A stretch of 15,306 bases of DNA from assembly GCA_963745025.1 (NCBI GenBank), contig CAVUWD010000001.1, positions 1 through 15,306 on the forward strand, read 5' to 3'. Position 1 is the first letter of the stretch; each line of letters begins with the position of its first letter. The position numbers were made by a program, and so were the translations under genes. Shown in pieces: positions 1 to 14,001 of the stretch. The DNA comes from an uncultured delta proteobacterium. GTDB lineage: Bacteria; Desulfobacterota; Binatia; JACPRU01. Under the pieces are notes generated by a model. The model was not told the DNA's origin. It ran no database searches and saw only the letters and a list, made by a program, of their open reading frames with translations.

Positions 1-744
1 CACCTCGCCGAGAAGATCCTCACCACCCGCAGCGCTCTCGAAGGCGAGCGGAAGCAGGTGACCGTGCTCTTCGCCGACGTGAAGGGGTCGATGGATCTCG
101 CCGAGCAGCTCGATCCCGAAGACGTGGCACGAGATCATGGATCGCTTCTTCGCGATCCTCTCCGACGGGGTTCACCGCTTCGAGGGCACGATCAACCAGT
201 ACACCGGCGACGGCATCATGGCGCTGTTCGGTGCGCCGATTGCGCACGAGGATCACGCGCAGCGTGCTTGTTACGCGGCGCTGGACCTCCAGCACGAGCT
301 GCGGCGCTACGCGGACGAGATCCGCCTCGAGCACGGCCTCAGCTTCTCCGTCCGCATGGGCCTCAACTCCGGCGAGGTCGTGGTGGGAAAGATCGGCGAC
401 GACCTGCGGATGGACTACACGGCGCAGGGCCACACGGTCGGTCTCGCCGCGCGGATGGAGCAGATCGCGGAGTACCGGGAAGGTGCTCCTCACCGGGTAT
501 ACGGCGAAGCTGGTCTCGGGCTACTTCCGGCTGCGAGACCTGGGACGCACGAGGGTCAAGGGGGGTGGATGAGCCGGTCGGGCTCTACGACCTCGAGGGG
601 GTGGGGTCGTTTCGCACGCGCCTCGACCGCCAGCGGGCCCGCGGCTTTTCGCGCTTCGTCGGGCGTCAGGATGAGATCGCGACCTTGGAGGCTACCTTCG
701 CCCGTGCCCTCGACGGCCACGGGCAGGTGGTTGGGGTTCAAGGG
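1..744 (+). pseudogene. Class III adenylate/guanylate cyclase (cyclase-AAA type), 5'-partial, frameshifted and truncated before the AAA Walker A motif
   Basis: Stitched frames read HLAEKILTTRSALEGERKQVTVLFADVKGSMDLAEQLDPE / IMDRFFAILSDGVHRFEGTINQYTGDGIMALFGAPIAHEDHAQRAC...VRMGLNSGEVVVGKIGDDLRMDYTAQGHTVGLAARMEQ / GKVLLTGYT... / FVGRQDEIATL...GHGQVVGVQG. Metal-binding FAD and GDG motifs are present. Frame changes near 122, 473 and 565. Similarity stops where GxxGxGKS is expected. Confidence 0.88.
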
Positions 745-946
745 TCTTTTTCACGCCGGCACCTCGCAAGCATCGCGGCCGAGATTCGCCATTCGCCGGT
801 TTCCGAGAAGCGGTCGTCGCCAAGGCCGCTCAATGGACTTTCGGAGCGACCCCTCCGATAGGGGACTTTACTTATAGAACTGTTTCGACTGGGGAGGGAT
901 TGTGAGCTGTGCGAGCGTCCCTCGGCCGCTAACCTTTGCAGCGCAC

Positions 947-955
947 GAAGGAGAG
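947..955 (+). promoter_or_regulatory. Ribosome-binding site of the SDIMO alpha gene
   Basis: GAAGGAGAG ends 5 nt before the ATG at 961. Confidence 0.7.
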
Positions 956-960
956 TCCTC

Positions 961-2472
961 ATGCGAAGCCTCGTCGAAGCCCACAACCGAGTCAAAGATT
1001 TCGACTGGGAGCCGACCTACGCGAAGAAGCCGGTCCGCTATCCCACCCGCTACAAGATTCCCGCGAAGACCAAGGATCCGTTCCGCCACTTGCTCCGCGA
1101 TTATTTCTCGATGGAGGAGGAGAAGGACAATCGACAGTACGGCGCGCTCGAGGACGCGCTCGCGCGGTCCAACGCACCCGCCAAGGCGGAGCGGCGGTGG
1201 ATGGAGGTCATGAAGGTCGCTCTGCCGGTCGTGAACTTCGGCGAGTACGCGGCCATGAAGTGCACGGGTCAGCTCGTCGACACGATCGAGAACGCGGAGC
1301 TTCGCCAGGGCTACATGGCGCAGATGCTCGACGAGGTTCGCCACGTGAACCAGGAAGCGTACCTCACGCGCTACTTCGCGCGCCACGCCGCCGATCCCGA
1401 AGGCTTCGCGCAGGGCTTCAAGTTCCGCGGCACGAACATGTTCCACCGCGCTGGACGGGCGGCGCTCGAGGCGTTCTTCGTCGGCGACCCGATCGAGGGG
1501 GCGCTGAACCTGCAGGTCGTCGCTGAGACGGCCTACACGAACCCGATCTTCGTCGCCATGACTGAGATCGCCGCGGCCAACGGAGATCAGGCGACGCCGA
1601 GCGTGTTCCTGAGCATCCAGTCGGATGAGGCGCGGCACATGGCGAACGGCTACTCGACGCTGGCCGCGGTCGTGTCCAACCCCGATAACCTGACGATCCT
1701 ACAGGCCGACTTTGACCGCGCGTTCTGGCGTCAGCACGCGTTCCTCGATCCCTTCCTCGGCACCGTCTACGACTACTTCCAGGCCAAAAGGACCTCGAGC
1801 TACGGCGAGAAGTGGAACGAGTGGATCCATGAGGACTGGGTGGGCTGCTACATCGAGAAGCTCGCCCCATTCGGGCTGAAGGTGCCCCGCTGGTACCCCG
1901 CGGCGCGCAGCCGTATGCAGTGGATCGGGCACACGGCCGCGATGTTCGCGTTCGCCGCATGGCCCCTGCAGTTCTGGCGCTTCGACCCGCTCACCGACGA
2001 GGACATGGAGTGGTTCGAGCGCAAGTACCCCGGGTGGTACGGCCACTACGGCGCGTTCTGGCAGGAGTACCGCAAGATGTGCGACCCACGCTCGAAGAAC
2101 GTGCCGCTGTCGCTCTTTCCGGCGATGCCGCCGATGTGCCGCGTCTGTCAGATGCCCTGCGTGTTCCCGCGGCCCGACATCACGACGATGCGGGTGAAGA
2201 CGTACGGGGGCAAGAAACACGCCTTCTGCACCGAAGCCTGCGAGTTCATCTTCGACGAAGACCCTCAGCGCTATCTCGGCTACGACACGTTCTACGAGCT
2301 CTACGACGGTTACGATCTCGCCGAGTACGTCCGCGAGAACGGGCTCTTGCGGGCGGACGGCAAGACCCTGATCGCGCAGCCCTCGCTCGACGACGATCGC
2401 ATGTGGACGATCGACGATCTCGCGGCCCTGAAGATCGAGATCAAGAATCCGCTCGCGGAGGTGCTGTCATGA
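961..2472 (+). CDS. prmA: Soluble di-iron monooxygenase hydroxylase alpha subunit, group-6 propane monooxygenase-like
   Basis: 503 aa, intact. Two DExRH iron-binding motifs (DEVRH, DEARH), further ligands E95 (FGEYAA) and E189 (AETAYTN), plus FDWEPTY, KTKDPFR, WFERKYPGW, CRVCQMPC and DGKTLIAQP, all typical of SDIMO alpha subunits. The group assignment rests on recalled similarity and gene order. Confidence 0.95.
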   Translation: MRSLVEAHNRVKDFDWEPTYAKKPVRYPTRYKIPAKTKDPFRHLLRDYFSMEEEKDNRQYGALEDALARSNAPAKAERRWMEVMKVALPVVNFGEYAAMKCTGQLVDTIENAELRQGYMAQMLDEVRHVNQEAYLTRYFARHAADPEGFAQGFKFRGTNMFHRAGRAALEAFFVGDPIEGALNLQVVAETAYTNPIFVAMTEIAAANGDQATPSVFLSIQSDEARHMANGYSTLAAVVSNPDNLTILQADFDRAFWRQHAFLDPFLGTVYDYFQAKRTSSYGEKWNEWIHEDWVGCYIEKLAPFGLKVPRWYPAARSRMQWIGHTAAMFAFAAWPLQFWRFDPLTDEDMEWFERKYPGWYGHYGAFWQEYRKMCDPRSKNVPLSLFPAMPPMCRVCQMPCVFPRPDITTMRVKTYGGKKHAFCTEACEFIFDEDPQRYLGYDTFYELYDGYDLAEYVRENGLLRADGKTLIAQPSLDDDRMWTIDDLAALKIEIKNPLAEVLS

Positions 2473-3500
2473 CCGTCGAAGCCAAGGCACCCCGCGACTT
2501 CACCTACATCCGGCCGCGCAAGCGCCGGCTCTCCGAGTACGAGGCCGTCACCTGTTACACGCAGCCCGACCCGGAAGTCTTCGACAAGCAGGGGTGGTAT
2601 CTGCGCACCGCGGAAGGGCGGACGGCGTGGCGGAAGGAATCGACGCGCCTCAGCCACCCGCACTGGTTCGACTTCAGGGACCCCGCGGCGCTCTGGCAGC
2701 GGCCGTACGTCCGCATGCAGGCGGAGCAGGAGCGCTCGCTCGAGAGGGCGTTCGAGGATGCCGCGCGCGGCGGGGCGTTTCGCGACTTCGAGCCGATCTG
2801 GACTCGCGAGATCGTCGGCGCGCATTACCGCGTCTGGTCGTTCTTCGAGTACGGACTCTTCCGCTGCTTCGCGCAGGCGCAGCGCGAGACGCTCTCCGAC
2901 ACGCTCGGCAACGTCTACTGCTTCGCCGGCGTGGATCGCATGCGCCATGCGCAAGCGATCGTGATCTATCTCATGGACCTCGAGGATCAGATCGAAGGAT
3001 TCCGTGACGTCGGCGCCAAGGAGCGATGGCTCTCCGATCCAATCTATCAGCCGATGCGTCGATTGACCGAGGAGCTGATGGCGATCGAGGACTGGGCCGA
3101 GCTGCCCGTGGCCGTGCACCTCGCGGTCGACCCGATTCTCAGCGACGTGGGCGCGAGCGAGATCGTCCGCCGTCACGGCGCTTTCCACGGCGACGCGGTC
3201 AGCCCGCAGGTGGTCGCCACGACGGAGCGCGATCGGCGCCGCAACCTCGAGTGGACGCAGGAGCTGGTGCGCATGGTGACGGACCCGAAGGTCCCGGCGG
3301 CCGACGCGAACCGCGAGCTCGTAAAGGGCTGGATCGCCCGCTGGACGCCCCGGGCGCTCGCGGCGACCGAAGCCCTGGCGCCGATCTACGAACGGATCCC
3401 TAATCGTCGAGGCAGCTTCGGCGAGGCCGTGACACGTGCCCGCGAGGCACAGGCCGCGATCGTCGCCGCCCTCGAGCCCAAGTCCACGGAGGCCGCATGA
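2469..3500 (+). CDS. SDIMO hydroxylase beta subunit
   Basis: Likely start is ATG 2469, an ATGA overlap with the alpha stop, giving 343 aa. Contains RRLSEYEAVTCYTQP, WFDFRDPAALWQRPYVRMQAEQE and DRMRHAQ, typical of the methane/phenol/alkene hydroxylase beta family. Symbol left blank because prmB/prmC usage differs between systems. Confidence 0.93.
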   Translation: MTVEAKAPRDFTYIRPRKRRLSEYEAVTCYTQPDPEVFDKQGWYLRTAEGRTAWRKESTRLSHPHWFDFRDPAALWQRPYVRMQAEQERSLERAFEDAARGGAFRDFEPIWTREIVGAHYRVWSFFEYGLFRCFAQAQRETLSDTLGNVYCFAGVDRMRHAQAIVIYLMDLEDQIEGFRDVGAKERWLSDPIYQPMRRLTEELMAIEDWAELPVAVHLAVDPILSDVGASEIVRRHGAFHGDAVSPQVVATTERDRRRNLEWTQELVRMVTDPKVPAADANRELVKGWIARWTPRALAATEALAPIYERIPNRRGSFGEAVTRAREAQAAIVAALEPKSTEAA

Positions 3501-3802
3501 CCACCCATGTAGGAAGGAAGGTTGCGCTCGTCCTGATGAAGAGCGACGAGGCCGACGCGACGATAGACATGCTCGAGCGCGAACGGCCTGACGTCGAGGT
3601 GACCGACAAGGGCACCTACTGGCACATCGCCGCCGACGACGAGATCGTAGTGCCGATGGACAAGGTTGGCCAGGAGCTCGGACGACCGATCGAGCTCAGC
3701 CAGTGGCTCGTCGTGATGACTACATTCGTCGGACGAGCGGCGCCGGGGCCCGACTTCTTCCGGGTCACCTCGAAGATGGTCGAGCTCGAAGCAGGGGCGT
3801 AG
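3497..3802 (+). CDS. SDIMO coupling/effector protein (MmoB/DmpM family)
   Basis: 101 aa, ATGA overlap with the beta stop. VALVLMKSDEADA, DKGTYWHIAADDEIVV and MTTFVGR match the MmoB/DmpM pattern, and the position in the operon fits. Confidence 0.92.
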   Translation: MTTHVGRKVALVLMKSDEADATIDMLERERPDVEVTDKGTYWHIAADDEIVVPMDKVGQELGRPIELSQWLVVMTTFVGRAAPGPDFFRVTSKMVELEAGA

Positions 3803-3809
3803 GTCTTCG

Positions 3810-4856
3810 ATGGCGAGCTGTCGAGTCCGTCTCGAGCCGAGCGGAACGGTCTTCGAAGCCGGCGAAGGCGAGGCGGTGCTGAACGCCGCGCTACGGCACG
3901 GGGTGCCGCTGCGGTACGGATGTCGTCACGGCAACTGCTCGAGCTGCAAGTACCTGGTGAGCGACGGCGACGTCGATCTCGGCAACGCGTCGCCGTACTC
4001 GCTCTCGGAGCGGGAGCGAGAGGAGGGCTGGGCGCTACTCTGCTGTGCGCGTGCGTGCTCCGATCTGGTCATCCAGGTTCCCGAAGACCCGACCGATCGA
4101 CTGCGGCCGGTTCTGCGGCCGGCCGACTTCGCTGCGACGGTCTCGGTGAACGAGCGCATCACTCGCGCGCTCTACCGCTTGCGGCTCCGTCTCGACCGGC
4201 CGCTTGCCTTCTACCCGGGCCAGTTCCTCGAAGTGGAGGTTTCGGGTCGCTCCGGAGAATGGCGGTCGTACTCGATCGCCAGCCCGCCGAGCCGCTGCGA
4301 AGAGGTCGATCTCGTCATCCTCAAGATTCCCGGTGGCGCGTTCTCGGGAAGCCTCGACCAGCTGAGCCGCGGGAACCCGCTACGCGTTCGTGGACCCTAC
4401 GGCGCGAGCTATCTCCGCGAGGGAGATCAGCCCATCCTGCTCGTCGGCGGCGGATCGGGAATCGCTCCGCTGCTGTCGATCCTCGAAGCGGCCGCCGAAG
4501 ACCGAGACCCCCGAGCGATCACGTTCTACTACGGTGCCCGTACCGTGGCCGACCTTCCTCTACAGGAAGAGATCGCCAACCTGCAGAGGCGCGTTCCGAA
4601 CCTCCGCTACCGGCCGGCGCTCTCCGAGCCGACGGCCGACTGCCGGTGGGAGGGCCCGGTCGGGATGATCGCTCAGGTCATCCAGCGCGCCCTCGCGGAT
4701 GCGAGCCCGTTCGACGCTTACATCTGCGGCCCGCCGCCGATGTGCGACACCGTCTCGCTGATCCTCGCGGCCAAGGGTCTCCAAGAAGGGCACGCGTTCC
4801 TCGACCGCTTCTATTCGGCGGTCGACTCGGCAGCGACTACGCCACCGCGCTCTTAG
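3810..4856 (+). CDS. SDIMO NAD(P)H reductase ([2Fe-2S] ferredoxin plus FAD/NAD-binding domains)
   Basis: 348 aa. Plant-type CRHGNCSSC...LLC cluster motif, FYPGQF, RSYSIAS (FAD), GPYG, GGGSGIAP (NAD), YICGPPPM and C-terminal DRF. Confidence 0.95.
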   Translation: MASCRVRLEPSGTVFEAGEGEAVLNAALRHGVPLRYGCRHGNCSSCKYLVSDGDVDLGNASPYSLSEREREEGWALLCCARACSDLVIQVPEDPTDRLRPVLRPADFAATVSVNERITRALYRLRLRLDRPLAFYPGQFLEVEVSGRSGEWRSYSIASPPSRCEEVDLVILKIPGGAFSGSLDQLSRGNPLRVRGPYGASYLREGDQPILLVGGGSGIAPLLSILEAAAEDRDPRAITFYYGARTVADLPLQEEIANLQRRVPNLRYRPALSEPTADCRWEGPVGMIAQVIQRALADASPFDAYICGPPPMCDTVSLILAAKGLQEGHAFLDRFYSAVDSAATTPPRS

Positions 4857-5120
4857 CGGCGGCCCGGCCGCGTCGCGCCGAGGAAGCCCGAGGCGACTGG
4901 AAAGCGCCATGGCCGAAACGGATGCCCGGTTGATCCTGGATCTCAGGGGACCACACGTTGCTCTTCGACGACATGTCCCTCGCCTCCTTCCGGATCTTCG
5001 GCGCTGACCAGACTCGAAACGCGTACGCGGCGCAAGAAGCCTCTCATGTCCTGGGTCGTGGACCCGCATTCGACTCGAGCGGCGAGCGTCAGCTGTGGTA
5101 GGGCGCAACCGTGGAAGGCT

Positions 5121-5269
5121 ATGAGACCGCGCCCCCGGCCGGACGGCGATCGGGTACAGCAACACCCCGACCTGGTTCAGGCGCCGCGCACGGGACGACC
5201 CTCGAGGGCATCCTCGAGCGCGTCACCTACGCCAATGAGGAGACCGCGTGGAGCGTGGTGAAGCTGGTC
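5121..5269 (+). pseudogene. recD2: N-terminal stub of a RecD2-like ATP-dependent DNA helicase
   Basis: LEGILERVTYANEETAWSVVKL (5201-5266) matches the conserved RecD2 N-terminus. Similarity ends abruptly after about 25 codons. The 5' boundary is approximate. Confidence 0.7.
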
Positions 5270-5559
5270 GCTGCGCGTGCTGCGGCGGCAATTCGAACTC
5301 GATGACGATGCGCTCGAGGAGGTCATCGAAGAACTCGTCGACGTTCAGCGCATGGCACGACGTGAAGGCAGTCTTTTGGTGTGGGTGGAAGATGCACCGG
5401 CGTCAGCCTCGGCATCGCCCGCCGCGAATACGACGGCGCCTTCGACGCCGAGCGTTCGCGAACCGCGCACGCCTACACACCGAAACACCTCCCTGACAAG
5501 ATCCTGCAGTCCCGCTGCAGTCCCGCTTGCAGTCCCGCTCCGCCCTCGAAGGCGAGCGC
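5268..5559 (+). pseudogene. N-terminal fragment of a class III adenylate/guanylate cyclase
   Basis: SLRVLRRQFELDDDALEEVIEELVDVQRMARREGSLLVW, then after a frame change AYTPKHLPDKILQSR-[repeat]-SALEGER. The last part aligns directly with HLAEKILTTRSALEGER at positions 1-51. Confidence 0.8.
5505..5538 (+). repeat. Tandem triplication of TGCAGTCCCGC
   Basis: Copies at 5505-5515, 5516-5526 and 5528-5538. Confidence 0.95.
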
Positions 5560-5638
5560 CGTAGAAAGGGAGCATTCCGAGGCAGAAGTGGGGGGTCGCC
5601 GTGCGACTGTGATATCGAGGCCAGCTGAGGAGGAAGTC

Positions 5639-6095
5639 ATGCCGAGTCTAGAGTACGAATTCACCTATCGCGCCACGTTGAAGCCCGCGGTCACCATCGG
5701 GTCCGGGCCTTACGGCAACCGCATCGTCGTCGAAGTGACCGGCGGCGACTTCGAGGGGCCGCGGCTCAAGGGAAGGATCCTGAGCGGCGGCGGCGACTGG
5801 GCCCTGGTCGGACCCGACGGGCAAGCGCGCCTCGACGTGCGTGCCCAGCTCGTCACGGGCGATGGGGCGGCCATCTACCTCGCGTATTACGGAATCATCG
5901 AATTCAACGCGAAGGCGCAGCAGGCGCTGGAGAAGCAGACCGGAACGGAGTTCGCGGACCACTACTGGCGGACGAATCCCCGCTTCGAGACCGGCGACCC
6001 GAGAGTACGCCTGGCTGAACCAGACGCTATTCGTAGGAGAGGGCCGGATGCTGCCGAACCTGGTCGTCGAGTACCGGGTGTACAGGGTCACCTGA
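5639..6095 (+). CDS. DUF3237 (UPF0311-like) protein, one frameshift near 6003
   Basis: RBS GAGGAGG upstream of ATG 5639. Reads GPYGNRIVVEVTGGDFEGPRLKGRILSGGGDW...RLDVR...RTNPRFETGDP and continues in another frame as YAWLNQTLFVGEG...EYRVYRVT. Confidence 0.85.
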
Positions 6096-6181
6096 AGAAT
6101 CCCGTCGTTCTCGCTCTACGACTCAGTTGCAACGCGTGCGCTGGCGATCGCCGTGAAGAACGATCGGATCGAGTCGCGGTT

Positions 6182-6298
6182 CACGCAGCTCGCGAGTCGG
6201 ATCAGGTCACGAATCGGCACGAGCTGCGTGGCGTGAGAGGACGACCCGCACCGGGCCAGCTTCGCCTTATCCCGTAACCTGAACTGGCGAAGCGGCCC
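6182..6298. repeat. Two adjacent inverted repeats
   Basis: CACGCAGCTCG (6182-6192) / CGAGCTGCGTG (6220-6230) is a perfect 11-bp pair. GGGCCAGCTTCGCC (6253-6266) / GGCGAAGCGGCCC (6286-6298) pairs 13 bp with one bulge. Confidence 0.7.
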
Positions 6299-6318
6299 GC
6301 GCCGGCGGCTCCTACCGC

Positions 6319-6438
6319 TTGATCGCCAAGATTCCGCACTCGCGACGCTGGCGCGTCACCCTCTCCGGCCGTCGCATCATCGCCGCAGCCCTCAAGCTAC
6401 GTGAAGGGCGCTTCAGTCTCTACGCCGCTGCTGCCTGA
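6319..6438 (+). mobile_element. Probable C-terminal remnant of an IS-like transposase
   Basis: Not in the ORF track. Translates LIAKIPHSRRWRVTLSGRRIIAAALKLREGRFSLYAAAA-stop, resembling the winged-helix C-terminus of a poorly classified transposase family. Followed by an A-rich possible element end at about 6450-6490. Recognised from memory only. Confidence 0.5.
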
Positions 6439-6571
6439 CCTGGACAGGATCTTCGCAAAACGCGAAGAAGCAACGGACAAAGAATCAATCCCCCGATAAG
6501 GTTTGGCCCTCCGCAGGCCAGACGCTGTAAGGCCCGACATCCGCGGGGAGAGCTCGGGAGGAGGACAGTTG

Positions 6572-7829
6572 ATGGCCTACGTGATCGCCAACGCGAGCAT
6601 CTTCGATGGCACCGGCCGGGAGCCGTTCCGCGGCGCCGTCCGCGTCGAGGCGAACCGCATCGCCGCGGTCATCCCGGGGTCGGACACGCCCGACGCCGCC
6701 GGCGCGACCGTGATCGATGGCGCGGGCGCCACGCTGATGCCCGGCCTCATCGAGTCGCACGCGCACCTGGGCTTCGCCGACATGAGCTCGCACGACCTGA
6801 CGCGGCTCCGCCATCGAGGAGCACATGCTCATCACCGTGCGCAATGCGCGCACGATGCTCGACTGCGGCTACACGAGCGCGTTCTCGGCCGCGTCGGCCA
6901 AGCCGCGCCTGGACGTCGTGCTGCGCCGCGAGATCGAAGCCGGACGGGAGGCCGGGCCCCGGCTCCTCGCCAATGGCCCCGAGATCACGGTGACGGGCGG
7001 GCTCGGCGACACGAATCAGATGCACCTGCCCCACTACGAGACGCCGACCTTCTCGTGGGTCGCGGACGGGCCCGACGCGATCCGCCGGGTGTGCCGGCTG
7101 CTCGCGCGCGAGGGCGTCGACCTCCTGAAGCTCAACCTCTCCGGCGACATCGGCACGTCGAGCTATCCCTCCGACCAGACGCCCGATGACGGACGGCGAG
7201 GTCGCGGCCGCCATGGAGGTGGCGCGCGCGGCCGAGCTTGCGCGTCGCCGCGCACTGCCGGAGCGCGGAGTCCGTCATGATGGCCCTGCGCCACGGCATC
7301 GAGGTCATCTATCACGCCAACTACGCGGACGAGCGCGCCCTCGACGCGCTCGAGGCGGCGCGCGACCGGATCTTCGTCGGGCCCGCGCTCGGCCTCACCT
7401 ATAACCTGACGCCAGGCGGGCGGCCAGTGGGGCGTCACGCCGAGCGGGCGCGGGCCTTCGAGCACGAGCTGGAAGTCTCCGTCGAGGCGGTCGCGCGCAT
7501 GCGCAAGCGCGGCATCCGGGTGCTCCCCGGCGGCGACTACGGCTTCCTGTTCACACCGCACGGCACGTACGCGCAGGACCTCTGGGTCTTCGTCAAGATC
7601 CTCGGCTTTTCGCCCATGGAGACCCTCGTGGCCGCGACCAGGCTCGGCGGCGAGCTCATGGGGCGCGCCGGGCGAGCTGGGCGTGGTGAAGGCGGGCGCC
7701 CTCGCCGACCTCTTGCTCGTGGACGGCGATCCCCTCGCGCACATCGAGATCCTCCAGGACAGGAGCGCGCTCCGCATGATCATGAAGGACGGCGCGCTTC
7801 ACAAGGCGCCCGTGCGAACCGCCGCGTAG
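6572..7829 (+). CDS. Metal-dependent amidohydrolase (prolidase-like/Xaa-Pro dipeptidase subgroup), multiply frameshifted
   Basis: RBS GGAGGAGG. Contains NASIFDGTG, IDGAGATLMPGLIESHAHL (HxH), LLKLNLSG, VAAHCR, EVIYHANY, GGDYGF..PHG and LGVVKAGALADLLLVDGDPL...IMKDG, ending at TAG 7827-7829. Frame changes near 6810, 7185, 7235 and 7670. Confidence 0.85.
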
Positions 7830-7861
7830 AGTTATCTTTTCTCTAAGAACGGAGGAATGAC

Positions 7862-8616
7862 ATGGCACGTTGGGACACGATTCAGGTGGACGGGCAGCCA
7901 ATGCGGATCTATCTCGACGCCCCCCACGGGGGCGGGGCGGCCCCGGGCGTCGTCGTCATCATGCACGGCCCCGGTCTCGAGCGCTTCATGGAGGACCGGG
8001 TCGAAAAGCTCGCTCGCCAGGGGTATGCGGCGGCGCGCCCGGACCTCTAGCCACCGTCAGCCGCAGAACGACGCCGCCGACATCATGACCCGCATCGGCC
8101 GCCTCCGCGACACGGAGATCATCGCCGACGTTGATGCGCGCCATCGCGCACCTGCGCCGGCTCCCCGACGCGCACGTCGGAGACCTCGCGGTGCTCGGCT
8201 TCTGCATGGGTGGGCGCATCACGTACATGCTCGCCGGAGCGCGCCCGACCGCGTGGAAAGCGGCAGGCGTGTTCTACGGCGGCAACATCATGAAGCCGTG
8301 GGGCGACGGACCCGCGCCGTTCGACCTGACGAAGAACATCGCCTGTCCGGTGATTGGCTTCTTCGGCCTCGAGGACACGAATCCCTCTCCCGCTGACGTC
8401 GACAAGATCGACGCGGAGCTCACGCGCCACGGCAAGGCGCATGAGTTCCACCGCTACGCGGGCGCGGGCCACGCGTTCCTCAACTTCACCAACGCCGAGC
8501 GCTATCGCCCTGACCGGGCCAAGGACGCGTGGGCCAAGATGCTCGGGTTCCTCTCGCGCTTCCTAGAGGTGGCCCCGCTCAATAAACGATTCGATGGAGC
8601 TTGCCGAGCAGGTTGA
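7862..8616 (+). CDS. Dienelactone hydrolase family protein, frameshifted
   Basis: RBS GGAGG. Contains PGVVVIMHGPGL, LARQGY..PDL, the nucleophile motif GFCMGG, FYGG, GLED and YAGAGHAF...DAW. Frame disruptions near 8035-8050 and 8135. The true stop may lie near 8566. Confidence 0.88.
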
Positions 8617-8833
8617 TCCCGAGGAGTGGCACAAGATCATGGATCGCTTCTTCGCGATCCTCTCCGAGGGCGTTCACCGGTTCGAGGGGACGATCAATCA
8701 GTACATGGGCGATGGGATCATGGTGCTGTTCGGTGCGCCGATTGCGGTACGAGGACCACGCGCAGCGCGCCTCCTATGCGGCTTTGCATCTGAAGGACGA
8801 GCTACGGCGCTACTCCGACGAGCTTCGCCTGAG
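8591..8833 (+). pseudogene. Internal fragment of a class III adenylate/guanylate cyclase
   Basis: SMELAEQVDPEEWHKIMDRFFAILSEGVHRFEGTINQYMGDGIMVLFGAPIA / EDHAQRASYAALHLKDELRRYSDELRL. Clearly similar at DNA level to positions 88-330. Confidence 0.9.
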
Positions 8834-8877
8834 GGTGAGTCTCTTCGATAGCGTATCGGAAGTGGGGGCGGATTAGT

Positions 8878-9693
8878 TTACTCCCTGCGCCTCTTCCGTT
8901 CTCCGCGCCCCTTACCTTCGGACTTCGGTCGACCGTACGAAGCGTCACGTTGTTTTTCCAGAAGGAGCTCGACCTGGGCAGCAAGCTCGCGCGTTATGTG
9001 CCCCCGGAAAGCCTGCACACTCCTCGGCGTGACAGCGTCTGTAGGATACGCAGAAACTCGGCGGTCACGTTCCTCACTCAAGCTACATCCCCACTGTGCC
9101 AATGCCGCGATAGCGACCGCAAACGGTTGCTCTCCGAGCTTCTTCGCCACCTTCCGCTCGGCATCGCCATGGGCTGCTCTTTCCGCTGCAATGATGTGCC
9201 GGTGCTTTGCCTGGGGCCAGATCTGATGCACCAGCTTCAACTTTTGCACCACGCGATCGCTCTGGGCAGCAAGCGCCCTCGCTAGTTTTCCTCCCTCATC
9301 GCGGAGCGCTGGAGCGTCGATTCCCTCGGTCACTTCGTGGGACTTGCCGCGCAGCATCAGCTGCAACGCTGAACTCGTCACCCGTGTTTCGCGGCTGAGC
9401 GATACCGATCCCTTCTCCGGTAAGAGATCCCACAACTCGATCGACGCCGCTTCTTCTCTGCCGGGAACCGGCACAGCGAACTTCAAGGCTTGCAGAACGG
9501 TCGGCAAGAGGAGGAACTCCTCAATCGCGATCTTACGTCGCCCGAGCTCTATGGCCGCGATCGTCGCGCGCGTCCACGGGAGGCCCCACTCGCGCGCTTC
9601 GCCCGCGACTTCATCCTGGCGCCTACCATGGAGTTCGCGGAGTTCGCGAAGGCGTTCCCCGATCGCTTTGTCGAGGGGTTTTGGGAGTTCCAT
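8878..9693 (-). CDS. XRE-family HTH transcriptional regulator, putative element repressor
   Basis: Likely start MELPKPLDK at 9693, giving 271 aa. N-terminal AIGERLRELRELHGRRQDEVA...WTRATIAAIELGRRKI is an XRE HTH. Divergent from a small Cro-like gene. Confidence 0.8.
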   Translation of the reverse strand: MELPKPLDKAIGERLRELRELHGRRQDEVAGEAREWGLPWTRATIAAIELGRRKIAIEEFLLLPTVLQALKFAVPVPGREEAASIELWDLLPEKGSVSLSRETRVTSSALQLMLRGKSHEVTEGIDAPALRDEGGKLARALAAQSDRVVQKLKLVHQIWPQAKHRHIIAAERAAHGDAERKVAKKLGEQPFAVAIAALAQWGCSLSEERDRRVSAYPTDAVTPRSVQAFRGHITRELAAQVELLLEKQRDASYGRPKSEGKGRGERKRRRE

Positions 9694-9747
9694 GGCTCTT
9701 CGTGTAGCGCATTGCCTGAAGCAGGTCCAGCGAGTGTGTCCGCACGC

Positions 9748-9777
9748 TTGACATCTTGAGGGATAGTAGGATATCAA
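9748..9777 (+). promoter_or_regulatory. Candidate sigma70 promoter in the divergent switch region
   Basis: Perfect TTGACA at 9748-9753, but only a weak -10 candidate (TATCAA, 9772-9777). Lies in the 90-bp gap between the two HTH genes. Confidence 0.4.
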
Positions 9778-9783
9778 AGGTGC

Positions 9784-9984
9784 ATGGGGACTCGCCTGAA
9801 CTCGCTTCGTCGCTGGCGGCACAAGAGTGGGCTCTCGTTGGAAGAAGTCGCGGACCTCACCGGCCTATCGCCGGCGATGTTGAGTCGGCTCGAGCGTGGC
9901 CAGCGGAACCCGTCACTGGCAACGAAACTAGCCGTGGCGAGGGGACTCGGAGTCCGCATCCGTACGCTTTTTCCTGTGGGGTAA
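9784..9984 (+). CDS. Small Cro/CI-type XRE HTH protein
   Basis: 66 aa: LRRWRHKSGLSLEEVADLTGLSPAMLSRLERGQRNPSL..KLAVARGLGV..LF. Confidence 0.9.
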   Translation: MGTRLNSLRRWRHKSGLSLEEVADLTGLSPAMLSRLERGQRNPSLATKLAVARGLGVRIRTLFPVG

Positions 9985-10037
9985 GCAATCAGAGGGAGTT
10001 TGGACCAGAAGGCTTGAGACGTTGTTGTGGTGGGTTT

Positions 10038-10055
10038 GGTGGTGGTGGTGGTGGT
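10038..10055 (+). repeat. (GGT)6 microsatellite in a G/T-only tract
   Basis: 10021-10056 contains only G and T and ends in six GGT units. Confidence 0.9.
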
Positions 10056-10246
10056 GCAAGGGAAGCGCCGGTCGAAAGTATCGACGTTAGAGCCTCTTCC
10101 AAGAGTAGGGGGATCTCATCTCCCGTCGTCGGCTGGCAGAGAGCCGGATCTCCGACGCACCCTCAATTCGGGCTCGAGCGAGTCGACAAAGCTCATGGCG
10201 TGCTGTCTCCGCGCTCGCCCGGCTTCCGAGAAGGAGGAGGTGCCTG

Positions 10247-10471
10247 ATGCGACAGAAGGAAGAGGGAGCCGCTGCGAACGACTCCCCCCAGATCAAAAAT
10301 GAAACCCGACTATTCGCATTCGTAGCACACGAGACCGATCCGGCAAAGGACCAGTTGAGTGCTCACGGGGCGAAGCTGACACTACGTCGATCGTCCGATC
10401 GCCGCGATCGGCTCCCGCGACCTAACCTGCGACCGCTGCGACAGCCGTGCTCAACAGGGGTGCGGCGATGA
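10247..10471 (+). CDS. Hypothetical protein upstream of the primase
   Basis: Strong RBS AGGAGGAGG before ATG 10247, 74 aa, no recognised domain. Confidence 0.45.
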   Translation: MRQKEEGAAANDSPQIKNETRLFAFVAHETDPAKDQLSAHGAKLTLRRSSDRRDRLPRPNLRPLRQPCSTGVRR

Positions 10472-10562
10472 TCGCCAACGTGCTCGAGCTCTGCGCGGGC
10501 TGCGACCCGGCGAGGATGACCGAGATCAACGTAGGGATCGTTGAGCAGCCGAGGGCGACCGC

Positions 10563-11429
10563 TTGATCCGACACTCTCGTCATGACCCGTGCCGCGTGTG
10601 CCGCGGGCATCCCGACCTTCCGCGCGGACACGGAGAACGCGACTTCGGTTTTCGCTCGGATGACGGCCGCTTCGAGCACTGCACTCGTGAGGAGTACGCG
10701 GGAAGCCTCGAGCTCCACGCGCCGAGCGGGAGCTACGCACACCGCCTCGATGGGCCGTGTACCTGCGGAGTCGAACACAGCTGCGCACGCGACCCACTCG
10801 ACCGGCCGGCCGTGCCGAGGCCGCTCTTCACGGCTGCAGAGCGAACGGAACGCGCCCGCGCGATCTGGTGTGCGGCGAAGCTGGCAGCGGGAACGCCTGT
10901 CGAACGTTACTTACGCGGCCGAGGCATCACGGGACTGCCACCCTCCTCACTCCGCTTCGCGGTGCTCTGGCACGCGCCTACACGGTGCGAACTCCCGGCG
11001 ATGGTCGCGCGCGTGGATAACGTCCGCGGCGAGCTCATAGCGATCCACAGAACCTTTCTTCGGCCTGACGGCTTCGATCGCATTGACAAGCGGATGTTAG
11101 GCCCGTGCCGCGGCGGTGCAGTTCGGCTCGGGCCGCCGGCGCGCAAGCTCGCTCTCGCCGAGGGTATCGAAACAGCACTCTCGATCATGACTGCGATCCC
11201 GGAGCTCTCGACCTGGGCGGCGCTGTCTACCTCGGGGCTCCGCACGATCGAGCTCCCCGCCATGCCACTTGCGGCCGAGGTCACCGGGTATGCCGATGCC
11301 GACCCCGCCGGGATCGAAGCAGCGAAAGACGCGGGGCGCCGCTTTGCTCGACAGGGGCGGCGTGTGCGGCTCGCCATACCTGAAGGCGGCGCCGACGACT
11401 TCAACGACATCTTGCGAGGCGTTGGGTGA
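10563..11429 (+). CDS. Toprim-domain primase-like protein with a putative N-terminal Zn-binding region
   Basis: PCRVCRGH and other Cys/His residues, ERYLRGRGI, LPAMVARV..G..IAIHRTFL, KRMLG..RGGAVRL, AEGIETALS, WAALS..GL, YADAD.AG and C-terminal DFND. Start codon (TTG) uncertain. Confidence 0.85.
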   Translation: MIRHSRHDPCRVCRGHPDLPRGHGERDFGFRSDDGRFEHCTREEYAGSLELHAPSGSYAHRLDGPCTCGVEHSCARDPLDRPAVPRPLFTAAERTERARAIWCAAKLAAGTPVERYLRGRGITGLPPSSLRFAVLWHAPTRCELPAMVARVDNVRGELIAIHRTFLRPDGFDRIDKRMLGPCRGGAVRLGPPARKLALAEGIETALSIMTAIPELSTWAALSTSGLRTIELPAMPLAAEVTGYADADPAGIEAAKDAGRRFARQGRRVRLAIPEGGADDFNDILRGVG

Positions 11430-12840
11430 GAGGACCGCACGCAATTCGAAACGCTCCCGAGCGGCTGATCCTCGATCCGTCCGACCCGCTGCCGAGCGCT
11501 CGAGCCTTCGTCGCTCAACAGCACCTCATCGATGACGTGCTCGCACTCCGACACCAAGCGGACGTCTTCTTCGCCTACGGCTCGACCGCCTACGAGAACG
11601 GGATGAGGCCGCAGTTAGGGCGGAGCTCTACGCCTTTCTCGAGGAGGCGCACTCTTGGGCGGAGCCTCGAAGGGCGGTCAGAGCCGAAGCTCGCGCCGTT
11701 CAAGCCGACAAAGAACAAGGTCGAGAACGTCGTCGATGCTCTTCGCGCCAGTCTGTCAACCTACCGCTTCTTGCCGGCACCGTGCTGGCTCGGAGGACGA
11801 TCCCGCACTCGATCCGCTCGACATCCTCGCCTGCCACAATGGGCTTACTCCACATCCCGACGCGCAGGCTTCTCCGGGCTACGCCGAGCCTTCTTCACGT
11901 TGAACGGTCTCGACTTCGCGCTTCGAGTCGGATCGGCCGCCGAACCGCAGCACTGGCTCCGCTTCTTGCAGGAGCTCTGGCCGGACGACTGCGAGTCGCA
12001 GGACACGTTGCAGGAGTGGATCGGGTACCTTCTCACGCCGCAGACTCACTTTCAGAAGATCGGCATGCTGGTGGACCCAAGCGGTCCGGAAAGGGCACCA
12101 TCGGACGGGTGGTCCGCCGCGACTACTCGGCGACCGTAACGTCTGCGGCCGACTCTCTCGAACCTAGGCCAGCAGTTCGGGCTGTCGGTCCTTATCGGGA
12201 AGTCGCTCGCCATCATCGCCGACGCGCGAATCGGCGGCCGGAGTGACACCGCCGTGATTACCGAACGCCTGCTGTCGATCAGTGGCGAAGACGGGCAGAC
12301 GATTCCTAGGAAGTACTCTGTCCGATTGGAACGGCAAGCTCTCGACGCGGTTGATGCTTCCTCACCAATGAACTGCCGCGCTTCGAGGATGCCTCCGGCG
12401 CGCTCGCCTCGCGCTTCGTCGTCTCGCTGCTCACACGGTCGTTCTTGGCGAGGAGGATACCGCGCTCTTCGAGCGGTTCGTTCCCGAGCTGCCGGGCATC
12501 CTGAATTGGGCGCTTGAGGGAGGGATCGGTTGTATGCTCGTGGCCGGTTCGTCCGCCCCACTCCTCGGCGGAGATGATCCAGCCAGTTCGAGGACCTGGG
12601 GAGTCCGGTGAGCGCCTTCCTACGTGATCGGTGTGAAGTGGGTGCCGGCCACGAGGTCTCGCAGCAAGAGCTCTTCGCTGCGTGGAAGACGTGGTGCCAG
12701 GACAACGGGCGGGAGAGGGCCGGCACGATTCAGATGCTCGGTCGTAACGTCCGGCCGCTCTACCGTGGCTGAAAGTCACGCAGCCCCGAGAGGATGGCGA
12801 GCAGGTGCGGTACTGGCAAGGACTGCGGTTGAGAGGCTGA
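11426..12840 (+). CDS. P4-family/D5-type (SF3) replicative helicase, heavily frameshifted
   Basis: Stitched frames give ILACHNG-LLH, FFTLNGLDF, PQHWLRFLQELWPDD...LQEWIGYLL, Walker A GPKRSGKGT, QFGLSVLIGKSLAIIADAR, ERLLSISGED and a C-terminal winged helix ELFAAWKTWCQDNG...RYWQGLRLRG-stop (12840). GTGA overlap with the primase stop. Confidence 0.85.
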
Positions 12841-12953
12841 CGCGCGATGACACGCGATTCCCTCCATTGTCCCTCTACTCCGACCATCGCGGGTGTGCGC
12901 GAGAAGGAAAGTTGGGAGAACAATAGAGAACCTCGCGTGTCGATGCGTGTCAG
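12837..12953. repeat. Imperfect 34-bp inverted repeat containing four GACRCGC units, candidate replication origin
   Basis: Arms 12837-12870 and 12920-12953 match at 25 of 34 positions by hand alignment. Units at 12839 and 12849 (forward) and 12935 and 12945 (reverse), 10 nt apart within each pair. Confidence 0.65.
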
Positions 12954-12987
12954 GGCCGCTCGGTCGAGAAGCTGGGCACGGAGGCTG

Positions 12988-13125
12988 ATGCATGATCGCC
13001 TCCCGCGTCGGCCGCCGTACCGACGGATCGGCATGATCAACTGGCGTCAACAGTTTCACGTGTTCGTGAATGCCGTAGCCGCGCGCCTCGAGCGCGGCCA
13101 CGAGACCTACGGAGACGACCGGTGA
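12988..13125 (+). CDS. Short ORF or truncated paralogue of the 13508-13750 gene
   Basis: RBS GGAGG before ATG 12988. Its C-terminal WRQQFHVFVNAVAARLERGHETY aligns with WRESFHEFAVRVAERLDRGEGPY. Confidence 0.5.
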   Translation: MHDRLPRRPPYRRIGMINWRQQFHVFVNAVAARLERGHETYGDDR

Positions 13126-13511
13126 CCCCCATCGCCGAACAGGAATGCGTGATCGTGATGAACCGGGGCGACGCCGAAGACGGCAAGGGCTTCATGGTCT
13201 CCTCGACGTGGCCGACCTGGACGAGGTTCTTCGACCAGCTCGTGAAGGCTGGGCTCGCGGAGATCGAACACGAGATCACCCGCGGCGGACGCCGGAAGGG
13301 CGCGAACTACCTCGTCCGGGCCGATGCCGTCAGCGTCGTCAGGAAGCGGCGGCTAGCGATCACGCCCGAGAGGCGAGCGCAGATGGCTGAACGGGGCCGC
13401 GCCCTCGCCAGGAATACCCGTTCTTCGCCGAGAACAACGACTCCGAGTCGTACTCCGAGGACCTCATCCCCCACGGAAGGATCCGAGGCCAAGGGAGAGG
13501 CCGAACCGTGA
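13122..13511 (+). CDS. Hypothetical phage-like protein
   Basis: 129 aa, GTGA-coupled at both ends. The EQECVIVMN...ITPERRAQMAERGR pattern resembles small phage hypothetical proteins. Confidence 0.65.
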   Translation: MTPIAEQECVIVMNRGDAEDGKGFMVSSTWPTWTRFFDQLVKAGLAEIEHEITRGGRRKGANYLVRADAVSVVRKRRLAITPERRAQMAERGRALARNTRSSPRTTTPSRTPRTSSPTEGSEAKGEAEP

Positions 13512-13750
13512 CGGACTGGCGGGAGAGCTTTCACGAGTTCGCCGTCCGCGTGGCCGAGCGGCTCGACCGGGGCGAAGGGCCGTACCAGGGCCGCTCGTTC
13601 TCCGCCGAGCCGCGCGCACTTATCGGGGAGATCCGCGACGAGCTGCGCGACGTGGCCGGGTGGGCGTTCGTACTCGACGGCCGCCTCGCGCGGGCAGCCG
13701 ACGCGCTCTCGCGGCTGCGTTCACTCAACTCGGAGGAGCCTACGTCGTGA
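13508..13750 (+). CDS. Hypothetical phage-like helical protein
   Basis: 80 aa, GTGA-coupled at both ends. Contains RLDRG...Y..RSF....LIGEIRDELRDVAGWAFVL. Confidence 0.65.
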   Translation: MTDWRESFHEFAVRVAERLDRGEGPYQGRSFSAEPRALIGEIRDELRDVAGWAFVLDGRLARAADALSRLRSLNSEEPTS

Positions 13751-14001
13751 ACGTCGAGCCCGAGGGATACCTCACCACCGTAGAGGTGGGGAGGAGACTC
13801 AGGTGGTCCACGCGCACGATCCGCGCGAAGATCGCCGGTGGTGTCTTTCGGGAGGGCCAGCACTTCTTCCAACCGGCGGGGTGCCAACCGCGCTGGAAAT
13901 GGGACGCTGTCGTCGCGTGGCTCGAAGGCAAGGAGCGTCCCGTGATAGACGACGAGGAACCGATCCGCCTCGCTCGTGGTGGCGGGAAGGCGTTGCTCTG
14001 A
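13747..14001 (+). CDS. Excisionase/AlpA-like winged-helix protein
   Basis: GTG start overlapping the previous stop, 84 aa. Reads YLTTVEVGRRLRWSTRTIRAKIAGGVFREGQHFF...RWKWDAVVAWL. The stop overlaps the integrase ATG (TGATG). Confidence 0.75.
   Translation: MNVEPEGYLTTVEVGRRLRWSTRTIRAKIAGGVFREGQHFFQPAGCQPRWKWDAVVAWLEGKERPVIDDEEPIRLARGGGKALL

Follow-up and report, generated by a model that had tools for sequence, protein, structure and literature searches.

Organization of the operon

The window analyzed here, the whole stretch of 15,306 nucleotides from contig CAVUWD010000001.1, carries a soluble di-iron monooxygenase (SDIMO) operon at positions 961-4856 of the + strand. The table of open reading frames (ORFs) and direct reading of the sequence both give four intact, consecutive genes, which encode the hydroxylase alpha subunit, the hydroxylase beta subunit, a coupling protein, and a reductase; this is the arrangement described in the original prediction, and the protein family matches agree with it. 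Judging from the sequence, the region probably encodes a complete and functional three-component SDIMO of group 6, which would belong to the largely non-actinobacterial part of that group. Group-6 SDIMOs are behind bacterial growth on propane and butane, as well as the degradation of 1,4-dioxane and tetrahydrofuran (THF) in Mycobacterium.

The alpha gene (961-2472, + strand) encodes a protein of 503 amino acids that is predicted to bind the carboxylate-bridged di-iron centre and ends in a YHS-like motif of four cysteines; it matches the Pfam families Phenol_Hydrox (6e-54) and YHS (6e-7). The beta gene (2469-3500, + strand; 343 amino acids) also matches Phenol_Hydrox (3e-52), and the coupling or effector protein (3497-3802, + strand; 101 amino acids) is a member of the MmoB/DmpM family (MmoB_DmpM, 8e-19). 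The fourth gene (3810-4856, + strand) encodes an NADH:acceptor reductase of 348 amino acids, in which an N-terminal plant-type [2Fe-2S] ferredoxin domain is followed by FAD- and NAD-binding domains (Fer2, 1e-15; FAD_binding_6, 1e-13; NAD_binding_1, 3e-19). The Pfam matches of all four proteins are not due to chance. When compared with NCBIfam, the beta subunit (MmoY-type model, 1.5e-53), the reductase (MmoC-type, 1e-58), and the coupling protein (MmoB-type) show similarity under the equivalog cut-offs, and the alpha subunit reaches no model. The reductase translation reads C38-x4-C43-x2-C46...C78, RSYS, GGGSGIAP, and CGPPPM, which we take to be the [2Fe-2S] cysteine spacing and the nucleotide-binding motifs. 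Together, Pfam and these motifs give the remaining features of the SDIMO superfamily: the beta subunit is a homologue of alpha, the MmoB/DmpM effector is of the type that has no cofactor, and the NADH reductase combines [2Fe-2S] and FAD.

The genes are tightly packed. The start codon of beta lies within the stop of alpha (ATGA, 2469-2472), that of the coupling gene lies within the stop of beta (ATGA, 3497-3500), and a 7-bp spacer (3803-3809) separates the coupling and reductase genes; these junctions, read directly in the sequence, are as had been predicted. The two ATGA overlaps suggest that the translation of alpha, beta, and the coupling protein is coupled.

The operon is preceded by a conserved 5′ leader (858-960, + strand), in which a GGAGAG ribosome-binding site stands a few bases before the ATG of alpha. 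DNA similarity to the closest related locus (L009) starts at approximately 857-880, about 100 bp before this ATG, and is absent further upstream. The segment GAAGGAGA is invariant across the window, L009, and the second closest locus (L010), in both of which the strong ribosome-binding site before alpha is also kept. A single terminator-like hairpin is located at 850-864, and the number of hairpins is within chance expectation. The GC content of the window ranges from 0.61 to 0.72.

Gene order and absent partners

According to the review by Yang, Kertesz and Coleman (2025, PMC11825192), a group-6 operon consists of four genes, alpha being followed by beta, coupling, and reductase; the orders of groups 4 and 5 are stated in the same review (PMC11825192). 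These definitions were compared with annotated records. The group-6 clusters of Mycobacterium dioxanotrophicus PH-06 and Mycobacterium chubuense NBB4 read alpha, beta, MmoB, and reductase, with groEL downstream; the group-4 cluster of Nocardioides JS614 reads beta, MmoB, alpha, and reductase; and the group-5 clusters of the Methylocella tundrae plasmid and R. ruber YYL read alpha, reductase, beta, and MmoB. A phenol-type record shows dmpKLMNOP, and the Xanthobacter Py2 record is of the four-component type with gamma and Rieske genes. The window has the group-6 arrangement. Its operon holds no gamma gene of the kind that characterizes group 3, and it shows neither the order of groups 4 and 7 (beta, coupling, alpha, reductase) nor that of group 5 (alpha, reductase, beta, coupling).

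The order had been put forward as characteristic of group 6. This is correct with regard to groups 4, 5, and 6, whose orders were confirmed on the records, but not with regard to the smo-type cluster of group 3 (plasmid pRZP1 of Rhodococcus sp. ZPP, similar to smoXYB1C1Z of NBB4), in which alpha, beta, coupling, and reductase are followed by gamma and groEL. Because the first four genes are common to both, they cannot separate group 6 from smo-type group 3, and it is the missing gamma gene that does so.

The claimed absence of a gamma subunit and of a Rieske ferredoxin holds. No gamma subunit, Rieske ferredoxin, or DmpK/TmoB-type protein was found by Pfam (E <= 0.01) among 81 stop-to-stop ORFs of at least 50 amino acids that start before position 6400 on either strand; matches were confined to the four genes of the operon and to remnants of other genes (cyclase, YrrC-OB, and DUF3237). 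The gamma subunit of the Rhodococcus smo-type cluster gave no match to the window in a tblastn search at E <= 1e-8, although this search is weak because gamma subunits are poorly conserved.

The four window proteins were also mapped onto every related locus found in a scan of species-representative genomes. In 24 loci, referred to here as group-6-like, alpha shares 56% identity or more with that of the window (L001, L002, and L009-L030). The full order is seen in 16 of them; three more (L011, L013, and L019) agree as far as the contig reaches, and two (L021 and L028) stop right after alpha. None of the 58 loci with 37-47% alpha identity has the window order; they show the group-4/7 order or the group-5 order, or are cut short. 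Gene order thus tracks the alpha tree, since the order of the window occurs in loci at 56% identity or above and never in those at 37-47%.

The remaining group-6-like loci are variants. In L027, from a metagenome-assembled genome (MAG) of Sporichthyaceae with a long branch, a reductase-like gene lies directly upstream of alpha, beta, and coupling. L012 and L025, both from Candidatus Dormiibacterota MAGs, carry a group-6-like alpha (70% and 63% identical, respectively), and beta, coupling, and reductase genes were undetected within 10 kb in L012 and within 2.5 kb downstream and 10 kb upstream in L025. The next recognizable genes in L012 encode a pirin and a GntP permease. These two alphas may be orphan subunits or belong to a split operon. 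In a Panacagrimonas MAG (L023), a second SDIMO alpha of the phenol/toluene type (17292-18611; 26% identical) occurs approximately 3.3 kb downstream of the group-6-like operon.

Relatives and phylogeny of the alpha subunit

Among annotated plasmids, the alpha subunit is most similar to those of PH-06 (62.3%) and NBB4 pMYCCH.01 (62.1%), followed by Rhodococcus sp. ZPP and WAY2 (61.1%) and Mycobacterium sp. ELW1 (59.2%). Identity to the group-4 protein EtnC of JS614 is 46.9%, and all other annotated plasmids reach approximately 40% or less; against reference sequences it is 38-40% for group 5, 41% for smo-type group 3, and 42% for the group-7-like protein of Zhongshania. The review retrieved 44 group-6 sequences at a threshold of at least 50% identity to the NBB4 alpha WP_014805366.1 (PMC11825192, supplement Table S1), and the window alpha is 62.1% identical to this query over 99% of its length.

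A protein search with alpha identified 597 relatives among 8000 candidates scored, with at least 120 protein clusters at 55% identity or more, all among the matches listed. The organism-named relatives among the matches listed include Candidatus Binataceae (75%), Chloroflexi (66%), Dormibacteraeota (62%), Mycobacterium avium (60%), M. paragordonae (57%), Deltaproteobacteria (56%), and a second Binata-labelled MAG (56%). The genome scan yielded 80 loci with at least six phylum-level labels. The closest are L009, from an ‘uncultured delta proteobacterium’ MAG (alpha 97%), and L010, from a ‘Deltaproteobacteria bacterium’ MAG (86%); the next, at 77-56%, come from MAGs labelled Actinomycetes, Dormiibacterota, Myxococcota, Pseudonocardia, Gammaproteobacteria/Panacagrimonas, Chloroflexi, and Mycobacterium. 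The beta subunit is 94% identical to that of L009 and 46% to that of PH-06, the coupling protein 94% and 38%, respectively, and the reductase 67% to L009, 68% to L010, and 45% to PH-06.

A quick tree of 55 alphas and a careful maximum-likelihood tree of 39 (LG+C20+F+G4), obtained after 16 near-redundant rows were dropped, show the same picture; support is given as ultrafast bootstrap/SH-aLRT. The window groups with L009 (2 rows, 100/98), then with L010 (3 rows, 100/98), and then with the Candidatus Binataceae protein P0018 (4 rows, 99/97). This subclade falls in a weakly supported multi-phylum clade of 16 rows (80/38), and the branching order within group 6 is tentative. PH-06 and NBB4 belong to a mycobacterial/actinobacterial clade of 6 rows (100/100), outside which the window lies. 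Together, the two clades (22 rows, 90/75) make up group 6 in the wide sense, which unites the window alpha with PH-06 and NBB4 at moderate support, and the smo-type group-3 sequence is sister to them (23 rows, 99/97). Groups 4 (100/100) and 5 (100/100) and a group-7-like clade (100/98) are located elsewhere in the tree.

The window alpha is therefore neither nested among the mycobacterial alphas, to which it is 62% identical and whose clade is closed, nor associated with group 4 or 5. Identity and tree together bear out the core of the original prediction, a group-6-like SDIMO distinct from the characterized actinobacterial enzymes. Its claim of a divergent, uncharacterized lineage is likewise supported: the operon belongs to an uncharacterized and largely non-actinobacterial section of group 6, although one that already appears in the 2025 review (PMC11825192). 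There, subgroup A contains mostly Pseudomonadota MAGs, subgroup B contains Actinomycetota together with Deltaproteobacteria sp., Candidatus Binataceae, and Chloroflexi, and subgroup C is mostly Mycobacterium (PMC11825192). The taxa of subgroups A and B recur around the window alpha (Binataceae, ‘Deltaproteobacteria’, Chloroflexi, Panacagrimonas, and other Gammaproteobacteria), whereas the members from Dormibacterota and Myxococcota found here are not named in the part of the review available to us (PMC11825192). Since the review lists Binataceae, Deltaproteobacteria, and Chloroflexi in group 6, the window operon is not the first of its lineage (PMC11825192). Up to 2024, group 6 had been held to be confined to Mycobacterium and Rhodococcus (PMC11057499), and a search of open-access papers and preprints found no paper on an SDIMO in Binatia or on a propane monooxygenase in Panacagrimonas.

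It might be argued that the clade of the window stands as an SDIMO group of its own, or as an offshoot of smo-type group 3 that has no gamma, and that it shares only an ancestral gene order with group 6. The common first four genes and the sister position of the smo-type sequence would fit this proposal, as would the limited support of the nodes that unite the mycobacterial and multi-phylum clades and that hold the latter together, and in the quick 55-row tree the three lineages form an unresolved fork. On the other hand, the window alpha is far closer to the group-6 references (62%) than to the smo-type alpha (41%), neither the ORF scan nor tblastn found a gamma gene, an approximately unbiased (AU) test did not reject a tree in which the window subclade was forced directly with the mycobacterial clade (p = 0.10), and the review files Binataceae, Deltaproteobacteria, and Chloroflexi under group 6. 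A separate group is thus improbable, and assignment to group 6 is preferred.

Active site, mechanism, and candidate substrates

The best solved structure for alpha is MmoX, the alpha subunit of the group-3 soluble methane monooxygenase (sMMO), which aligns over residues 6-498 (E 1e-122) with all ligands in register; phenol hydroxylase and toluene monooxygenase structures trail far behind (1e-39 to 1e-28). The predicted di-iron ligands E95, E125, H128, E189, E223, and H226 align with E114, E144, H147, E209, E243, and H246 of MmoX, and would make up the two E...EXXH ligand sets typical of the alpha subunit in the SDIMO superfamily. In the 55-row alignment, the six positions are kept in all 28 group-6-like rows and in all printed references. 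The T193/N194 pair is kept in both the MmoX and the 55-row alignments. MmoX has a longer N-terminus, so that the near full-length alignment begins at its residue 27, and sMMO, unlike the window operon, has a gamma subunit. MmoX positions C151, L110, and F188 correspond to E132, V91, and A168 in the window alpha.

C393, C396, C423, and C427 of the C-terminal motif are kept. This YHS-like motif was considered as a distinctive mark and rejected, as 52 of the 55 rows, which span several groups, have it, the exceptions being L005, L008, and L076.

Among the closest known systems is PrmABCD of PH-06, a plasmid-borne propane/THF/1,4-dioxane monooxygenase with the same four genes in the same order, no gamma, no ferredoxin, and identical di-iron ligands. 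It differs from the window system in the alpha clade, in the groEL gene directly downstream and the insertion sequence (IS) elements around the cluster, neither of which is found in the window, and in the actinomycete host, which the window probably does not share. The window alpha, beta, and coupling proteins are also slightly shorter (503, 343, and 101 vs. 512, 363, and 105 amino acids). The NBB4 group-6 SDIMO, which is itself uncharacterized and served as the query of the review (WP_014805366.1), has the same gene order, but its cluster is linked to genes for an NDMA (N,N-dimethyl-4-nitrosoaniline)-dependent alcohol dehydrogenase, groEL, and a two-component regulator, none of which occurs in the window. 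SmoABCD of R. aetherivorans BCP1, with the same subunit set and order, is involved in the metabolism of C3-C6 alkanes and chlorinated alkanes (PMC11057499), and the alphas of its closest plasmid relatives are those of ZPP and WAY2 mentioned above. In Rhodococcus, smoABCD alone did not permit alkanes to be used for growth, which became possible once the dehydrogenase and GroEL genes were added to smoABCD (PMC11057499); no such genes are linked in the window. The smo-type group-3 cluster of pRZP1, the sister lineage in the tree, has gamma and groEL after the reductase gene.

A mechanism can be proposed from the homologous systems, namely sMMO and the group-6 enzymes of Mycobacterium and Rhodococcus. 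The reductase would take two electrons from NAD(P)H via FAD and the [2Fe-2S] cluster and pass them to the di-iron centre of alpha in an (alpha-beta)2 hydroxylase without gamma. The small MmoB-type protein would bind the hydroxylase and gate O2 activation, and one oxygen atom would be inserted into a small hydrophobic substrate.

By analogy, the substrates are most likely C2-C6 n-alkanes, oxidized at the terminal carbon, and cyclic ethers, chlorinated alkanes, and alkenes are most likely side substrates. Characterized group-6 enzymes act on propane, butane, THF, and dioxane, with terminal oxidation (PMC11825192). For the window enzyme, the support for hydroxylation of propane and butane at C1, and for oxidation of THF and 1,4-dioxane, is the predicted similarity of its active site to that of PH-06. 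At the 22 non-ligand aligned positions printed, which include T193/N194, 17 residues are the same as in PH-06 and five differ conservatively (G94/A, V129/T, A168/V, I196/L, and I219/V); four differ from NBB4, which also has G at position 94.

The enzyme may instead be real but have a physiological substrate that is neither a gaseous alkane nor a cyclic ether, such as an alkene, a ketone, or another small metabolite. This is possible, though the less probable option. According to the review, most group-6 diversity is of unknown function, ketones have been proposed as the substrate of many group-5 enzymes, and a related group-7 enzyme oxidizes alkenes, its natural substrate being unknown (PMC11825192). 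Neither in the window nor in any of the eight relatives inspected is the operon linked to alkane-pathway genes. Residue 168, which corresponds to MmoX F188, is Ala in the window; PH-06 and NBB4 have Val at this position, and the references of group 3 and of Methylocella group 5 have Phe. Against this stand the near identity of the active-site positions to those of PH-06 and the fact that every characterized group-6 member acts on short alkanes (PMC11825192, PMC11057499). Short alkanes are therefore retained as the most likely substrates.

Selection and exchange of the reductase gene

The ratio of nonsynonymous to synonymous divergence (dN/dS) was computed against L009. It is 0.07 for alpha (dS 0.18), 0.14 for beta (dS 0.19), 0.08 for the coupling gene (dS 0.38), and 0.25 for the reductase gene (dS 1.03). 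All four genes have been under purifying selection on the lineages that separate the window from L009, and the low values of alpha, beta, and coupling (0.07-0.14) argue that the operon is functional.

The jump in synonymous divergence coincides with a drop in identity. Identity to L009, taken per 100-nt window, stays at 84-99% between approximately 934 and 3783, falls to 54-82% over the reductase gene, and then disappears. This places a recombination breakpoint at 3790-3810, where the block of hydroxylase and coupling genes meets the reductase gene. The coupling-reductase spacer of L009 is longer than that of the window. The fivefold jump in synonymous divergence means that the reductase gene was replaced through recombination, the partner being a less closely related member of this clade. 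Among the three closest reductases, the pairwise identities are nearly equal (67%, 68%, and 62%), which fits the remark in the 2025 review that, for the reductase, the phylogeny of alpha serves less well as a proxy (PMC11825192).

Surroundings of the operon

The original prediction took the genes on either side of the operon for cyclase-AAA paralogues. They proved to be three decayed fragments, frameshifted or truncated. The first, a cyclase-AAA(-TPR) remnant at 1-738, runs through frames 1, 2, 3, and 1 (three changes) and ends at about residue 332 of approximately 1140, so that some 800 C-terminal residues are missing; the second (5268-5480) is an N-terminal fragment covering residues 21-88; and the third (8582-8855) has one frame change. 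The only long direct repeat in the window (124-327 and 8626-8830) lies in the first and third fragments (91% and 78% identical), and brackets the operon as well as other remnants.

Downstream of the operon lie a YrrC-type OB fragment (within ORF 5102-5305), a DUF3237 gene split over two frames (ORFs 5366-6277 and 5784-6095), an amidohydrolase gene (6500-7846) whose N- and C-terminal parts are in different frames (at least one change), and a dienelactone hydrolase gene spread over three frames (7862-8047, 8052-8135, and 8140-8577; two changes), which has intact homologues of 240 amino acids at approximately 90% identity. The rest of the window (8881-15306) is a mobile-element-like module. It includes genes for a helix-turn-helix (HTH) protein (8881-9822, - strand) and a DUF7146-Toprim primase-like protein (10563-11429), and an ORF (13976-14791) with the N-terminal SAM-like integrase domain only, the catalytic domain not being detected. 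The GC content falls to 0.61 at 8500-10500. No tRNA gene was found in the window, and no att-like or convincing terminal repeats were found to bracket the operon.

In total, at least eight frame changes occur in approximately 3.5 kb of recognizable flanking coding DNA, vs. none in the 3.9-kb operon; by our own arithmetic, the chance of zero changes in the operon at a uniform rate is on the order of 1e-4. The frameshifts in the flanks reflect either true pseudogenes or uneven assembly quality.

Is the operon functional?

Several points weigh against a functional group-6 enzyme in the window. No sigma-70-like sites were found in 600-5400, and the window holds three sigma-54-like matches, a number that does not exceed chance expectation, with none upstream of the operon. 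No groEL-like chaperonin gene and no alcohol or aldehyde dehydrogenase gene was found in the window; linked genes of these kinds are frequent in actinobacterial clusters, although not strictly defining. With regard to classification, the node of group 6 in the wide sense is only moderately supported and that of the multi-phylum clade weakly, and the trees were built without MmoX and BmoX, with a single long-branched smo-type sequence representing group 3 and with very long outgroups. The substrate assignment is extrapolated across approximately 38% divergence, because, as the review stresses, no group-6 enzyme from outside the actinobacteria has been characterized (PMC11825192). In addition, given the eight or more frameshifts in the neighboring remnants, a recently stranded and unexpressed copy is conceivable.

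The last point can be extended to the proposal that the operon is a stranded, non-functional cassette in a decaying region rich in mobile elements. The broken state of the neighbors (cyclase-AAA, hydrolase, DUF3237, amidohydrolase, and third cyclase fragment) would agree with it, as would the absence of a promoter consensus upstream and of chaperonin or dehydrogenase genes. It is nevertheless very unlikely. Four frames remain intact over 3.9 kb beside the changes in the flanks, the dN/dS values against L009 are 0.07-0.25, although the last moment of function cannot be dated from dN/dS, and both the ligands and the ribosome-binding site are kept. The operon is a genuine, intact, and selectively maintained group-6 SDIMO of the uncharacterized and mainly non-actinobacterial part of the group.

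The host

The host is likely non-actinobacterial, and a Binatia-like host, as the original prediction had it, is plausible on circumstantial grounds, although the cyclase-AAA flanks on which that proposal was founded give a weak signal. The nearest alphas carry the labels delta proteobacterium (L009, 97%, and L010, 86%) and Candidatus Binataceae (P0018, 75%). The cyclase-AAA family is huge (7997 of 8000 protein candidates at E <= 0.001), and among the 120 matches listed for the cyclase-AAA fragment, two are organism-named, one as Candidatus Binatia and one as Myxococcales. The dienelactone hydrolase fragment gave 953 matches; the one organism-named entry among the 120 listed is from Methylomirabilota (77%), which is uninformative as to the host. 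No actinomycete name occurs among the 120 matches listed for either search. The relatives of the operon itself are weak evidence for the host, since the surroundings differ in each close relative and the operon moves.

One may ask whether the host is an actinomycete, or whether the contig is chimeric or poorly polished and its non-actinobacterial context artefactual. Two Actinomycetota MAG loci, L011 (77%) and L015 (68%), belong to the same multi-phylum clade as the window, and the flanks match none of the 22 related loci. Cyclase-AAA proteins are not limited to one phylum and also occur in mycobacteria. The clustering of frame changes in the flanks could reflect uneven assembly quality. Such an explanation is unlikely in view of the labels of the three nearest alphas and of the named flank matches, and a non-actinobacterial host is favored.

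Mobility and significance

A blastn comparison of the flanks (1-900 and 4801-15306) with the 22 related loci found nothing past the operon edge. The operon of L009 is surrounded by lipid- and sugar-metabolism genes. L010 has a complete phage-type integrase gene (5139-6437; SAM-like, central, and catalytic domains) approximately 460 bp downstream of the reductase gene, and no homologue of this integrase occurs in the window. No common neighbor gene was found among the ORFs scanned from L009, L010, L012, L014, L015, L016, L018, and L022. The four genes behave as a self-contained portable cassette, located in unrelated surroundings in each close relative, with the reductase replaced by recombination.

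A groEL-like gene is present in three of the 24 group-6-like loci (L001, L002, and L029), all of them actinobacterial, and in none of the eight non-actinobacterial loci with approximately 7.5 kb of downstream sequence (L009, L010, L014, L016, L018, L020, L022, and L023). The lack of linked chaperonin and dehydrogenase genes, the differing surroundings, and the replaced reductase suggest a portable hydroxylase module with an interchangeable electron donor. A more speculative extension, which is doubtful at present, is that this is a compact, chaperonin-independent form of group 6, a bare four-gene cassette that crosses phyla (Binatia-like bacteria, Myxococcota, Chloroflexota, Nevskiales, and some Actinomycetota) and swaps its reductase by recombination. 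If the enzyme does fold with no GroEL of its own, it would be the first of group 6 that can easily be expressed in Gram-negative hosts. Uncultured Binatia would also gain terminal ethane-to-butane or cyclic-ether oxidation, distinct from the copper membrane monooxygenase (CuMMO) and ‘prmABC’ routes reported there, the latter in some Binatota genomes (Murphy et al. 2021, PMC8262859).

The known picture of the SDIMO is unchanged by these results. What the window adds is an intact, selectively maintained operon from a poorly known, non-actinobacterial part of group 6. This operon is of value as an expression candidate, and it improves the estimate of which organisms may oxidize short alkanes or ethers in soils. 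Added interest comes from the bare cassette, its varied surroundings, the sharply bounded reductase exchange, and an environmental diversity wider than the published count suggests. Judged by the clusters and loci retrieved here (at least 120 clusters at 55% identity or more, and at least six phylum-level labels among the loci), the non-actinobacterial part of group 6 far exceeds the 44 sequences of the review.

Other SDIMO lineages

Some other SDIMOs were encountered among the relatives of alpha. P0101 and P0109, from Deltaproteobacteria and Candidatus Bina... MAGs, are alphas of 500 amino acids that resemble group 6 (52-53% identity, NBB4 and PH-06) and group 4 (53-55%, EtnC) to much the same degree. 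They branch alone between group 4 and the assemblage of groups 3, 5, and 6 (93/89 and 90/84), and may represent an unclassified SDIMO lineage.

Group 7 has been described as almost exclusively gammaproteobacterial (PMC11825192). Group-7-like SDIMO genes (beta, alpha, and reductase; in a clade with Zhongshania, 100/98) were found in a Candidatus Binataceae MAG (L073) and a Myxococcota MAG (L081), and also in L065 and L069. L081 and the group-6-like L013 come from the same MAG isolate. Three MAG records titled ‘Klebsiella pneumoniae’ (L030, L065, and L069) carry group-6-like or group-7-like operons on small or medium contigs, and the label of these contigs looks doubtful.

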